Assembly: GCA_016432645.1 (NCBI GenBank)
Contig: CP066698.1
Span: 86,245-131,061 of the forward strand
Direction: 5' to 3'
Source of the DNA: Candidatus Falkowbacteria bacterium
GTDB taxonomy: Bacteria; Patescibacteriota; Patescibacteriia; Patescibacteriales; UBA12465
DNA: 44,817 bases
Shown here one piece after another: positions 34,446 to 37,837 of the stretch. Each line of letters opens with the position of its first letter. Within the stretch, counting starts at the first letter, position 1. Under the pieces are notes generated by a model. The model was not told the DNA's origin. It saw only the letters and a list, made by a program, of their open reading frames with translations, and did not search any database. Made by a program: the position numbers and the translations under genes.

Positions 34446-34474
34446 ATTATAACACATTTTCTTGTAAATGTCAA
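34446..34474 (-). promoter_or_regulatory. Consensus sigma70 promoter
   Basis: Minus strand TTGACA (34474-34469), 17-nt spacer, TG-n-TATAAT (34451-34446). Confidence 0.85.
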
Positions 34475-34504
34475 TTATAAGGAAATGTAGTTGTTATTGC
34501 TAAG

Positions 34505-34532
34505 TTGACATACTGACCAGATTTGATATCAT
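34505..34532 (+). promoter_or_regulatory. Sigma70 promoter for pre-tRNA-Asn
   Basis: TTGACA (34505-34510), 16-nt spacer, TG-n-TATCAT (34527-34532), about 90 nt upstream of the tRNA. Confidence 0.65.
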
Positions 34533-34672
34533 ATTAGTAAATATTTCTGGTTGAAATATTTTGTTTTTGTAGGAGCGGATTAATATTTTTATATTGAATC
34601 CGTGAGCCACAATTTAATATTCCCGGGTAGCGCAGCGGTAGCGCAGTTGGCTGTGAACACATTTTTATTTTT

Positions 34673-34681
34673 TGCTATAAT
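34673..34681 (+). promoter_or_regulatory. Intron-internal extended -10 element, putative leaderless promoter of the HNH ORF
   Basis: TG-C-TATAAT ends at 34681, with exactly 6 nt before ATG 34688. No recognisable -35. Confidence 0.5.
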
Positions 34682-34687
34682 ATTATT

Positions 34688-34996
34688 ATGACAAAAGATA
34701 AAAGAAAATATGCCGATCGTGCCGAATATTTAAAGGCAGCGGTTGATAGGAGGCGAAAGCAAGTCCGTCAATTAGCCATTGAATATAAGGGCGGTGAATG
34801 TTCCATTTGCGGTTATAGCAAGTGTTTTAAAGCGCTTGAATTTCATCATCTTGATTCTTCTAAGAAAGACTTTGGCATCTCTGCCAAAGGATATACTAGA
34901 AGTTGGGAGGTGATAAAAAAAGAGCTCGATAAATGCATCTTGGTATGCGCAAATTGTCATCGTGAAATTCACGAAGGTATCACGCAGCCCCTTTGA
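34688..34996 (+). CDS. Intron-encoded HNH endonuclease, zinc-finger type; putative homing endonuclease
   Basis: 102 aa with CSICGY..C..ALEFHH...CILVCANCHREIH. Lies wholly inside the intron, between the 5' splice site and the IGS. Confidence 0.88.
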   Translation: MTKDKRKYADRAEYLKAAVDRRRKQVRQLAIEYKGGECSICGYSKCFKALEFHHLDSSKKDFGISAKGYTRSWEVIKKELDKCILVCANCHREIHEGITQPL

Positions 34997-35275
34997 GTAA
35001 TCAAAGGGTGAAAACGAGGTGAACTGTCTGGAAGCCTAAGTCGCAAGATATGGTAATCAGCAGCCAAGCCCTGACTTGTCAGGGAAGGTTCAGAGACTAT
35101 CCCGAAAGGGAGTAGGCCCGTCAAGGAGACGGCCCGAAGCGCCTCGCATCCGTAATTTGCGGATGATGATATAGTCCACTCCACTCAGAAATTAGTGGGT
35201 AAGTGTAACCAATTGGTCGTCGGTTCGAATCCGACCCCGGGAGCAAAGCGATCCGTTTCGGATCAACTCTTATAG

Positions 35276-35309
35276 AAAAACAAACGAGATTGCTCTCGTT
35301 TGTTTTTTT
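35276..35309 (+). terminator. Intrinsic terminator of the pre-tRNA
   Basis: Perfect 14-bp inverted repeat AAAAACAAACGAGA-TTGC-TCTCGTTTGTTTTT followed by further Ts. Confidence 0.75.
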
Positions 35310-35331: not shown

Positions 35332-36168
35332 ATGCCAGTCCCTACATATGATGAAATGTATAATCCATTACTTAAAGCAATGCGCGCTTTGGGTGGTTCT
35401 AGTTCAAATTCAGAATTAGATGATAAAGTCGCTGAAATCTTGGGGTTATCAGAGGAGGAAATAAATGCAATTCACGTTGGCAACAGAACGCGATTAAGTT
35501 ACAGAATGGCTTGGGCAAGAAATTATCTAAAAAGATATGGTCTTTTGGAAAATTCAGCGAGAGGTGTCTGGGCACTAACTTTAAAAGGTAAGAAAACGGA
35601 CACGGTTGATAAAATTGAGGTAAATAAATATGTAAAAGGATTAGATAAAAAATTAGAAACTGTCGAGGAAAAAGTTGAAGAAGGAAAAGTGCTGGGTGAT
35701 GAAGAAGTGCTATGGCAAGATGAACTTATAGAGGAATTATTAAAAATGGATCCATCTGCGTTTGAAAGATTATGCCAGAGAATGCTTAGGGAAAGTGGAT
35801 TTATTCAAGTAGAGGTTACTGGAAGATCTGGAGATGGAGGAATAGATGGTAATGGCATTTTAAAAGTAAATGGGTTTATAAGTTTTTTTGTTACTTTTCA
35901 ATGCAAACGATATAAGGGAAGTGTTCCGCCTAAAGAGATTAGAGATTTTAGAGGCGCTTCAATTGGAAGGTCGGAAAAGGGTTTATTTATTACAACAGGA
36001 ACGTTTACTCGTGACGCGAAAGCAGAGGCCGTGAGAGAAGGGGCTCCAAGAATAGATTTAGTTGATGGAGAGATGTTAGCTGAAAAATTAAAAGAATTAA
36101 GGCTTGGCATTGATGTTGAGATGGAAGAAGCAGTGACGATTGATAAAAAGTGGTTTGAAAATTTTTAA
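35332..36168 (+). CDS. mrr: Mrr family type IV restriction endonuclease
   Basis: Mrr N-terminal winged helix (PTYDEMYNPLL..WARNYLKRYGLLE..RGVWALT). Catalytic domain FERLC..GDGGIDG..QCKRY..GLFITTGTF. ATG 35332, because TTG 35290 lies inside the terminator. Confidence 0.92.
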   Translation: MPVPTYDEMYNPLLKAMRALGGSSSNSELDDKVAEILGLSEEEINAIHVGNRTRLSYRMAWARNYLKRYGLLENSARGVWALTLKGKKTDTVDKIEVNKYVKGLDKKLETVEEKVEEGKVLGDEEVLWQDELIEELLKMDPSAFERLCQRMLRESGFIQVEVTGRSGDGGIDGNGILKVNGFISFFVTFQCKRYKGSVPPKEIRDFRGASIGRSEKGLFITTGTFTRDAKAEAVREGAPRIDLVDGEMLAEKLKELRLGIDVEMEEAVTIDKKWFENF

Positions 36169-36178
36169 TAGATAAGAT

Positions 36179-37837
36179 ATGACAAAATCTAAAAATGAAA
36201 ATTTCTCTTTTGAGATTTCTTTAAGTGTGTTAGACCATTTAGGAAGAAATCTTTATAGAAGTTTTGTTACCGTGTTAGGTGAAGCTATTTCAAATTCTTG
36301 GGATGCAGATGCTCGCAATGTTAGAATTTATATTGATAAATCTAAAAATAGCTTTGTTATTATTGATGACGGAGATGGAATGACAAGTGACGATTTTCAA
36401 AATAAATTTTTAAGAATTGGTTATTCAAAAAGAAAAAATGGTAGTTCAATGTCAAAAAATCAGCGCCCATTTATAGGAAGAAAAGGTATCGGGAAACTGG
36501 CCCTGCTTTCTTGTGCAGATGAAATAACAATAGCTTCTAAAGTAAAAGGTGGAAGTTATGTAGGGGGCGTAATAAATAATAAAGGACTTGATAAAGCAAT
36601 CACAGATGACAGGGCGCCACAGGAATATGAGCTTGGTGTTTTAGATGTTGTTAAATTGAAAAAATTTACAAATAAACATAAAAAGGGAACAGTTTTATAT
36701 TTTAAAGGATTAAAAGATGAAATAAAAAATAACATTGATTATTTAAAAAAGATTGTTGCATTATATTTTCGTTTTTCTTTACTTGATAGTACGTTTAATA
36801 TATTCATAAATGATGAAAAAATAACTTATAAACATCTAAATGATTTATCTAAAAAAACAGAATTTTTATGGGAAACAGATGGAAATAAAGACCCTTTTGT
36901 ACGACAAGGGTTAAAATTTTTAAAAGAAGAGAAAAGAATAAAAATCGGAAGTGGAATTAATGGTTTTATTGCATCAGTGGATAAACCAAGAGATTTAAAT
37001 GTGTTATCAACTGGTGAGCGTGTTAGTATTGATTTATTTGTTAATGGAAGGCTAAGAGAAAAAGACATATTAAAACATATTCCTACGGCACGTATAGCAG
37101 AGAGTTATCTTTATGGCCAAATTCATTTTGATAACTTGGATGATAATGACAAAGATAGATTTACAAGCAGTCGAGAGAATGTTGTAGCGGATGATCCAAA
37201 ATATAAGGAATTTTTAGTAGAGTTCAAAAAAACAATTGAGGGGGTTATTAAAGACTGGGACACTTGGAGGATAAAAAACAGAAAAGATGGTAATCCAGAA
37301 AATGAAGATATTTTAAAACGTGATAGAAAATCTTTAGAATTGTACAATGTTGTATCCGGAGAATATATTCCGCCAAAGGGTTCGGCTAAGAAAAGTTTAA
37401 TAGATGAGTGGGTTGATAGTTTAGCTAATGATGCAAAATATAATTTTTCTTCATATGCAGAGTGCTTTATATCCGAAAATCTTATTAGGAAGTACATTGG
37501 AAATAAAAAAATAAAAATGACTGAAGAAGCAGAAAGGGAAATAAAAAAATGGAAAGATATTGAAAAACAGAATAAAGGGGCCGGCAATATAAGTATTAAA
37601 ATTAGAAATAGTGAAACTGGGTTAGGTTATTTATCAATGACAGATTTATCTGCTTTAGTAGATAAAAAGGGAAGAGATAAGCTTAAAGAAGCCTCGCTTT
37701 TTAGAGATGCGACAGAGTATAAGCCAATAAGAGATGCGTTGGCGCATACGGCATTATTAACTGATGCGGCTAAAAGCAAATTGACATCCGTTTATAACAA
37801 CATTAAAGAAAGAGTCAATGTGTTAATTTCAAAATAA
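36179..37837 (+). CDS. GHKL (MORC/MutL-like) ATPase with putative C-terminal HEPN domain
   Basis: E35-x3-N39 (EAISNSWDAD), DDGDGM, GRKGIGK. S5-like region LFVNGRL/SYLYGQIHFD. C-terminal ENLIRKYI..YLSMTDL..R518-DALA-H523. Confidence 0.8.
   Translation: MTKSKNENFSFEISLSVLDHLGRNLYRSFVTVLGEAISNSWDADARNVRIYIDKSKNSFVIIDDGDGMTSDDFQNKFLRIGYSKRKNGSSMSKNQRPFIGRKGIGKLALLSCADEITIASKVKGGSYVGGVINNKGLDKAITDDRAPQEYELGVLDVVKLKKFTNKHKKGTVLYFKGLKDEIKNNIDYLKKIVALYFRFSLLDSTFNIFINDEKITYKHLNDLSKKTEFLWETDGNKDPFVRQGLKFLKEEKRIKIGSGINGFIASVDKPRDLNVLSTGERVSIDLFVNGRLREKDILKHIPTARIAESYLYGQIHFDNLDDNDKDRFTSSRENVVADDPKYKEFLVEFKKTIEGVIKDWDTWRIKNRKDGNPENEDILKRDRKSLELYNVVSGEYIPPKGSAKKSLIDEWVDSLANDAKYNFSSYAECFISENLIRKYIGNKKIKMTEEAEREIKKWKDIEKQNKGAGNISIKIRNSETGLGYLSMTDLSALVDKKGRDKLKEASLFRDATEYKPIRDALAHTALLTDAAKSKLTSVYNNIKERVNVLISK

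Follow-up and report, generated by a model that had tools for sequence, protein, structure and literature searches.

A Group I Intron with an HNH Gene in the Only tRNA-Asn Gene of a Falkowbacteria Genome

We analyzed a 44,817-nucleotide (nt) stretch of DNA from Candidatus Falkowbacteria bacterium (assembly GCA_016432645.1, contig CP066698.1, positions 86,245 to 131,061), hereafter the window, in which a tRNA gene is interrupted by a group I intron that itself carries an open reading frame (ORF) for a predicted HNH homing endonuclease. The source genome is a single contig of 977 kb, 95% complete, and the close relatives of this genome are Patescibacteria assemblies, mostly Falkowbacteria. The tRNA gene lies at window positions 34621-35243 on the plus strand, as do all features described below unless stated otherwise, and is split by an insert of 551 nt. 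Exon 1 (34621-34654) runs from the acceptor stem to the anticodon base U35, and exon 2 (35206-35243), which starts with TAACCAATTGG, runs according to the tRNA fold from U36 to the discriminator base G73, the CCA end not being encoded. Once the exons are joined, ARAGORN recognizes a canonical tRNA-Asn(GUU), reported as tRNA-Asn(gtt), with the intron located after U35; the sequence of an intron-less tRNA-Asn gene includes ...GCAGTTGGCTGTTAACCAATTGG.... No second tRNA-Asn gene was found in the 977-kb genome with ARAGORN, the Rfam tRNA model, or a pattern search. A junction two bases further left (34652/35204), which would give tRNA-Thr(UGU) and is favored by the intron mode of ARAGORN (-i), was rejected because the genome already has a tRNA-Thr(tgt) and no other tRNA-Asn, and because only the Asn junction places a U·G pair opposite a conserved GCAG. 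The U1-A72/G73 acceptor end of the window tRNA also fits Asn, according to the identity elements of tRNAs.

The intron (34655-35205) starts with GAACAC and finishes with a terminal G at 35205, its boundaries following from the U·G pair of P1, the terminal G, and the tRNA fold. Its position in the sole tRNA-Asn gene of a 95%-complete genome speaks, indirectly, for autocatalytic, guanosine-dependent splicing. The Rfam group I model RF00028 matches positions 34969-35198 with 84.7 bits against a cut-off of 50 and is covered in full (model positions 1-253). The putative internal guide sequence GCAGCC (34984-34989), which forms the 3′ strand of P1, starts 329 nt past the 5′ splice site, and its pairing with the last six bases of exon 1 (GGCTGT, 34649-34654; GGCUGU/GCAGCC in the RNA) puts the canonical U·G pair (U34654·G34984) at the splice site. 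The P2 hairpin follows at 34990-35007, composed of a 5′ arm CCTTTGA (34990-34996), a GNRA loop GTAA (34997-35000), and a 3′ arm TCAAAGG (35001-35007).

The HNH ORF (34688-34996), which encodes 102 amino acids, occupies loop L1, starts with the ATG at 34688, and ends inside P2. Its last codons, ACG-CAG-CCC-CTT-TGA, contain both the guide sequence, read as AC(G CAG CC)C, and the 5′ arm of P2, the stop codon (TGA, 34994-34996) being the last three bases of that arm, and the overlap of the ORF with the guide sequence and the P2 5′ arm amounts to 13 nt in the window copy. An earlier, sequence-only reading of this DNA had proposed that the ORF is looped out of P1, with a guide sequence about 330 nt from the splice site, and that the final codons T-Q-P-L-stop encode the guide sequence and the 5′ arm of a GNRA-capped P2. 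Both proposals were borne out in all their coordinates.

The ORF of the window is intact. Its product matches PHROG 2255 (“HNH endonuclease”) at E 3e-30 and displays the complete catalytic and zinc-binding motif CxxC...HH...CxxCH...H (C38xxC41, H53-H54, and C87-N-C-H-R-E-I-H95), and its matches to sequences in PDB are weak (McrA, E 0.12). We found 3806 protein homologs at E <= 0.001, mostly in Patescibacteria, the best being 70-97% identical; the window ORF shares 97% identity with copies in other assemblies and 70-90% with hundreds of intact homologs. The endonuclease presumably cuts intron-less tRNA-Asn genes, thus driving homing of the intron.

P2 Covaries and a Second Intron Backs the Predicted Guide Sequence

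We collected 36 loci from species-representative genomes, 80 from metagenomes, and 28 that carry group I introns from 60 related genomes, and aligned 50 distinct sequences without gaps across the exon end, the intron start, the guide sequence, P2, and J2/3. Covariation proves the P2 helix: all seven of its pairs show changes on both sides among the 50 distinct introns (120 cells), a signal as high being reached in 0 of 500 shuffles, and the signal collapses in controls in which the pairing partners are slid. The locus L007 has TAA/TTA in place of the TGA/TCA of the window, such that the stop codon itself lies within a compensated pair.

The assignment of P1 is best read from its position, from the conservation of GCAG, which is invariant in the 50 distinct introns, and from a control provided by a second intron of the same genome. 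The two outer P1 pairs (GG/CC) are uncompensated where the exon differs, with 8 of the 50 introns unpaired at position -5, and they would form at the expense of the anticodon stem; the functional guide is therefore probably GCAG(C) rather than all six bases. In the second intron, located in a tRNA-Phe(GAA) gene, the exon ends differently, in GGACU, and a complementary GGUCC occupies the corresponding position immediately 5′ of a P2 capped by GUAA, which backs the guide sequence predicted for the tRNA-Asn intron. The tRNA-Phe intron is 253 nt long, has no ORF, lies after U33 of the only tRNA-Phe(GAA) gene (genome C1:629841-630166; L002 1478-1803), and also occurs in at least seven genomes of the same genus (L121, L122, L128, L129, L133, L134, and L145).

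The remainder of the ribozyme was analyzed by counting pairs in 46 sequences. J2/3 (GUGAAAA, 35008-35014), whose UGA serves as the ORF stop in many relatives, is followed by the 5′ strand of P3 (CGAGGUG, 35015-35021), which pairs with the 3′ strand CGCCUCG at 35140-35146 in 94.8% of cells with compensatory GC/AU/UA changes. The P4-P5-P6/P6a domain (35024-35089) was delimited with the RNAalifold consensus and pair counts, and the 5′ strand of P7 (GACUA, 35095-35099) pairs with UAGUC at 35172-35176 in 99.6% of cells. P8 (35147-35165), read from the sequence and the Rfam alignment, and P9 (35181-35198), which has a GAAA loop and is paired in 91% of cells with covariation, complete the fold; the pair counts cover the helices other than P4 and P8, which were positioned by visual inspection and with the help of the Rfam alignment. 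Across P2, P3, P5, P6, P6a, P7, and P9 the proportion of paired cells is 90-99.6%, and most helices display several pair types, P7 being nearly invariant. Two extra hairpins at the positions of P7.1 and P7.2 (35100-35111 and 35115-35135, together 35100-35135), paired in 96% and 87% of cells, respectively, both covary; they lie between P7 and the 3′ strand of P3 and correspond to a 38-nt insertion relative to the Rfam consensus. Hairpins at the P7.1/P7.2 position are typical of subgroup IA introns, and the core of subgroup IC3, to which the classical bacterial tRNA introns belong, has no P7.1/P7.2.

No convincing candidate was obtained for P10, the pairing of the 3′ exon with bases 5′ of the guide sequence, and in tRNA introns the anticodon stem presumably serves to align the exons. 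In many copies, GUUC stands just 5′ of the guide sequence (GGUUCUAC followed by GCAG), both in ORF-less introns (L124, L130, L132, and L142) and in ORF-bearing ones (L007, L008, and L010). This GUUC is able to pair with the first intron bases GAAC, extending P1, and is missing from the window copy (GGUAUCAC); ORF-deletion alleles seem to keep it, which would give a compact L1 hairpin.

The Overlap Fits Core Creep or an Insertion Flush Against the Guide Sequence

Among the 48 distinct tRNA-Asn introns that carry the ORF, every ORF continues through the guide sequence, and the place where it then stops varies: the stop codon falls in the P2 5′ arm in 14 of the 48, in the P2 3′ arm in a single one, in J2/3 in 20, and in P3 or beyond in 13, the overlap reaching more than 100 nt in relatives. 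The conserved part of the protein ends with ...CANCHREIHE(G), after which come T-Q-L/P and then, for example, QVIEVEKQGELLEA, a tail of 5 to ~40 amino acids that is ribozyme sequence read as codons. Of the 49 homologs linked to a ribozyme, 37 have a GCAG that begins 11 nt past the last His codon, whereas 34 of the 41 homologs with no ribozyme motif downstream lack it, and the free-standing and archaeal homologs have no T-Q tail. This flush position, the variable stops, and the lack of the tail elsewhere point to a gene without a stop codon of its own, which ends where the ribozyme offers one.

Variable and dispensable 3′ extensions of this kind were predicted under the name “core creep” by Edgell, Chalamcharla & Belfort (2011) (PMC3073962). 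In the present family the extension differs in length among relatives and lies outside the conserved protein, and the overlap, as far as the sequences tell, agrees with passive core creep or with a gene inserted immediately beside the guide sequence. ORFs extending into core sequence are known, their expression being tightly controlled, according to a 2014 review (PMC3984707). The sequence-only reading had suggested an alignment of homologous introns to look for covariation of the guide sequence and constraint on the T-Q-P-L codons. In the alignment GCAG is invariant and always read through, P1 gives no covariation, and the tail varies.

A Promoter-Like Box Lies Directly Upstream of the Start Codon

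The leader between the splice site and the ATG is 29-35 nt long in this family. In the window it contains TGCTATAAT, an extended -10-like box (34673-34681) located 6 nt before the ATG, which a promoter scan reports as part of TGAACA-16-TATAAT with a TG (34654-34681; 10 of 12 matches in addition to the TG), the possible -35 element TGAACA (34654-34659) spanning the splice site. In the Patescibacteria clade the conserved box ends 6-9 nt before the ATG. Counted at spacings of 5-9 nt, TGnTATAAT occurs in 22 of 40 distinct leaders, compared with 0.17 expected from shuffling, and the box is retained in diverged leaders such as those of L018 and L082 (TGAGATAAT-N6-ATG). Relatives outside Patescibacteria carry Shine-Dalgarno motifs (GGAGG, GAGGA, or GGAG) before the start codon instead. 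Because the spacing between TGAACA and the -10 box ranges from 11 to 17 nt in the relatives, we dropped a fixed -35 element at the splice site and propose the extended -10 alone. The possibility that the intron start GAACAC... is a copy of the recurrent leader motif of this genome, GAACYTTTAAAA, of which the strict form has 10 occurrences ~20 nt before an ATG, was also dropped, the match to the intron leader being poor.

In the whole genome, no Shine-Dalgarno enrichment was detected upstream of 727 long ORFs. A small genome-wide excess of TATAAT-like hexamers ending 6 and 8 nt before ATGs was observed, hinting that some genes of this genome are leaderless. As judged from the motifs in the intron leaders, the endonuclease is most likely expressed from an intron-internal promoter, as a leaderless mRNA that does not include the 5′ exon. 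Because such an RNA cannot form P1, translation of the endonuclease and splicing of the tRNA would take place on separate transcripts.

Proposed Relation Between Endonuclease Translation and tRNA Splicing

The explanation that we favor, with moderate confidence, is that a mobile intron in the sole tRNA-Asn(GUU) gene carries an HNH gene in L1 flush against the guide sequence, that the overlap arose by insertion and core creep, and that the gene has a leaderless mRNA of its own. According to this model, the HNH gene would have been inserted in L1 without its own stop codon, and its ORF would continue through the guide sequence, translated as Thr-Gln, into the ribozyme up to the first in-frame stop, here the TGA of the P2 5′ arm. 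The overlap would originate from the insertion position together with core creep, and would persist since the protein can do without the tail, whose nucleotides are constrained by the RNA. Splicing would restore the essential tRNA-Asn, and the endonuclease would cut intron-less alleles, leading to homing. A ribosome on the last codons would block P1 and P2 of that RNA, and the enzyme would be produced from the intron-internal extended -10 promoter (TGCTATAAT, 6 nt, ATG), with translation and splicing mainly on different transcripts.

Several observations weigh against this explanation. The ORF product reaches 18.9 bits with the Pfam HNH model (PF01844), under the cut-off of 21.4. The four pairs of the P1 core (CUGU/GCAG) show no variation in the 50 introns, because the anticodon loop is fixed, and hence bring no covariation support. 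Fourteen of the 40 distinct leaders have no good -10 box at the right distance, and related leaders are non-independent samples. Given that the host displays no Shine-Dalgarno signal anywhere, the lack of one before this ATG is uninformative, and internal initiation on the A/U-rich leader, in the precursor or in the excised intron, is possible. Moreover, metatranscriptome contigs of a close relative cover 34652-34833, including the leader upstream of the proposed start; these assembled contigs show the leader and the ORF in RNA and give no 5′ ends. Leader-containing RNA thus exists, whether it represents precursor, excised intron, or DNA carry-over.

The leader-containing RNA agrees with an alternative in which splicing comes first and ribosomes make the endonuclease without a Shine-Dalgarno sequence, chiefly on the excised intron or else, in small amounts, on the precursor, the TATAAT-like box being a side effect of A/T-richness or having a role in the RNA or in translation. 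In a genome with no Shine-Dalgarno signal, A/U-rich leaders would be a normal start context, and excised introns acting as mRNAs have been described among nuclear group I introns, I-PpoI being an example. However, 22 of 40 leaders have TGnTATAAT at a constant, short spacing from the ATG where 0.17 were expected, and the box survives in leaders that have otherwise diverged, so that we grant this alternative a modest chance of being correct.

The sequence-only reading had gone further, with the idea that a ribosome finishing the ORF must melt P1 and P2, that translation and splicing of one molecule consequently compete, and that this competition could act as a switch between production of the essential tRNA and of the mobility enzyme. 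The first part stands: that a ribosome on the last five codons and the P1/P2 helices cannot coexist on one RNA is a sound inference, because the ribosome must occupy the guide sequence and P2. There is also a precedent in the td intron of phage T4, in which ribosomes translating I-TevI occupy the intron core and make splicing defective (Gibb & Edgell 2010, cited in PMC3073962). A physically real conflict between translation and splicing is thus plausible, but an evolved switch is not favored. Such a switch would mean that the endonuclease is translated from the pre-tRNA, that ribosomes in the guide sequence and P2 block splicing, and that the competition was selected to divide transcripts between the two products. 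The overlap with the guide sequence in 48 of 48 ORF-bearing relatives would be consistent with it, as would the presence of the leader in RNA contigs, the I-TevI case, and the Shine-Dalgarno motifs located inside the intron leader outside Patescibacteria, where translation must start on a longer RNA. In contrast, the stop position is not conserved but wanders through four ribozyme regions among the 48 relatives, the tail is variable, and the insertion site and core creep explain the overlap more simply. In addition, a transcript lacking the 5′ exon is suggested by the conserved extended -10 box next to the ATG, we saw no sign of a condition-dependent signal, and for the cases already described the literature regards low translation as a safeguard of splicing and not as a switch (PMC3984707). 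We found no support for the switch and consider it unlikely.

That the ORF is a decaying, unexpressed remnant whose overlap has no present-day consequence is very improbable, since, despite the broken genes in relatives and the loss of the ORF from many alleles, the window copy is intact, 97% identical to the copies of other assemblies, and equipped with all the catalytic Cys and His residues. Slighter still is the chance that the overlap senses the supply of tRNA-Asn in an attenuation-like feedback within a mobile intron, a reading that requires a meaningful share of translation on the precursor RNA and in which scarce charged tRNA-Asn would stall the ribosome at the single Asn codon of the ORF (N89 at 34952-34954, which supplies the “N” of the HNH motif and precedes the guide sequence by 30 nt), leaving the guide sequence and P2 free for a splicing event that replenishes tRNA-Asn, and plentiful tRNA-Asn would let ribosomes enter the guide sequence and P2, the transcripts then giving endonuclease and not tRNA.

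Intron Alleles and the HNH Family

Group I introns are carried by 20 of 36 genomes of the same genus. The tRNA-Asn introns measure 535-620 nt with an ORF and 208-310 nt without, and several ORF-less copies retain a remnant of the ORF 3′ end beside the guide sequence, as in L120 (...cgtgaagtgcacgaaggttctacGCAGCT). An internal deletion in L143 left fragments of both ends of the ORF, and the smallest introns (L126 and L144) have an L1 of 8 nt, GAAAUGAC. The groundwater metagenome that contains the window sequence also contains intron-less tRNA-Asn alleles and an ORF-less intron. This coexistence of alleles with intron and ORF, with an ORF-less intron, and without intron is, as read from the sequences of the alleles, the usual gain and loss cycle of a homing element. 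Decaying endonuclease genes were observed in otherwise intact introns, with a frameshift in L025 and ATT in place of ATG in L045.

Free-standing members of the HNH family were observed inside or beside tRNA genes at ten loci (L032, L036, L083, L088, L093, L099, L102, L108, L111, and L112), including L032 and L036, where they lie within arrays of 19 and 7 tRNA genes, respectively. The free-standing HNH ORFs frequently stop at the very start of the tRNA gene that follows. Taken together, the family seems to be associated with tRNA genes and not with the intron alone. In Iainarchaeota/DPANN archaeal assemblies (L029, L030, L031, L034, and L037), HNH homologs of ~52-60% identity fill an insert of ~300 nt in tRNA genes, which leaves no room for a ribozyme, and CUGUUAC, an Asn-like anticodon-loop sequence, is found just 3′ of the ORF. 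These inserts are presumably protein-spliced introns with the same endonuclease family.

Relation to Known Systems

The closest layout is that of the tRNA-fMet intron of Synechocystis PCC 6803 (I-Ssp6803I), in which a PD-(D/E)XK endonuclease gene lies in P1 and overlaps P1/P2 by 61 nt (Bonocora & Shub 2001, as listed in Table 1 of PMC3073962). Both are bacterial group I introns in the anticodon loop of a tRNA, with the endonuclease gene in the P1 loop and an ORF that overlaps P1/P2. Unlike this cyanobacterial PD-(D/E)XK intron in tRNA-fMet, with its overlap of 61 nt, the window intron encodes an HNH protein, interrupts tRNA-Asn(GUU) after U35 in Patescibacteria, has an overlap of 13 nt, and possesses two extra hairpins between P7 and the 3′ strand of P3.

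A second likeness is with the T4 td intron, where the 3′ end of the I-TevI ORF also feeds ribozyme helices, splicing suffers when ribosomes are present there, and expression and splicing are kept separate. Promoters within the td intron also drive transcription of I-TevI. Unlike the window ORF, I-TevI belongs to the GIY-YIG family, is inserted in the P6 loop with an overlap in P6a/P7, and resides in a protein-coding host gene; moreover, I-TevI is controlled by a hairpin that hides the ribosome-binding site, whereas the window ORF lacks a Shine-Dalgarno site and no comparable hairpin was identified for it. The DNA-polymerase intron of Bacillus phage SPO1 encodes I-HmuI, an HNH protein, in P8, with an overlap of 9 nt (Table 1, PMC3073962). 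The window intron shares with it an HNH-family endonuclease, a bacterial-type group I intron, and a short overlap between ORF and helix, but I-HmuI differs in its insertion loop, P8 instead of P1, and in its protein-coding host gene, no close sequence relationship between the two being shown. Finally, the homing endonuclease SegB of phage T4 is free-standing and encoded among clustered tRNA genes (PMC2330249), just as free-standing members of the window family lie between tRNA genes; unlike SegB, which is of the GIY-YIG family, the window copy is an HNH protein located inside an intron.

We found no description of this intron family in the literature on tRNA-Asn group I introns in candidate-phyla-radiation bacteria, apart from a passing remark that some tRNAs of these bacteria carry group I introns (PMC8172020). 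The layout is already known from I-Ssp6803I, and has been discussed for I-TevI; what differs is the HNH nuclease, the insertion after U35 of an Asn tRNA, and the Patescibacteria host. The overlap reveals no new kind of mechanism, and is a clear natural example of the same nucleotides under two constraints, splice-site choice and P2 folding on one side, and the end of a protein on the other. With thousands of homologs, and with ORF-bearing, ORF-less, and intron-less alleles in one genus, the family is large enough to provide material for testing core creep, and would be useful for asking how mobile introns shield splicing from translation in hosts without Shine-Dalgarno sites.

Hidden tRNA Genes and Surroundings of the Locus

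Introns of this kind hide essential tRNA genes (Asn and Phe) from standard finders in candidate-phyla-radiation genomes, or cause them to be misnamed Thr, Tyr, or Ser, and automated annotation of such genomes will report tRNA-Asn and tRNA-Phe as missing. The split tRNA-Asn gene (window 34621-35243; relatives L003-L026 and L119-L146) is missed by ARAGORN in normal mode, and a 2-nt ambiguity in the placement of the junction (...CTGT/GA ... GTG/TA, slashes marking the junctions) leads the intron mode to report Thr(tgt), Tyr(gta), Ser, or Pro instead. A tRNA-Trp(CCA) gene on the minus strand (genome C1:382116-382186) was also missed by ARAGORN and was found by the Rfam tRNA model at 46 bits; with this gene counted, tRNAs for all 20 amino acids are present in the genome.

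Upstream of the tRNA gene, at a distance of ~85 nt, a consensus scan identified the putative promoter TTGACA-16-TATCAT with a TG (34505-34532, 11 of 12 matches), which stands back-to-back with a minus-strand TTGACA-17-TATAAT (34474-34446, 12 of 12 matches), both sites lying within 34446-34532. Downstream, an A/T-rich hairpin (ACAAACGAGA-TTGC-TCTCGTTTGT, 35280-35309) followed by a run of T looks by eye like a terminator of the tRNA gene, and was missed by the terminator scanner, probably as it has few G-C pairs. Directly downstream of the tRNA gene, the region 35332-37837 encodes an Mrr-type restriction endonuclease (Mrr_N and Mrr_cat) and a GHKL/HATPase_c_3 protein of 552 amino acids, and the G+C content drops to ~30% at 36-39 kb of the window. 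This region may be a defense island adjoining the tRNA gene.

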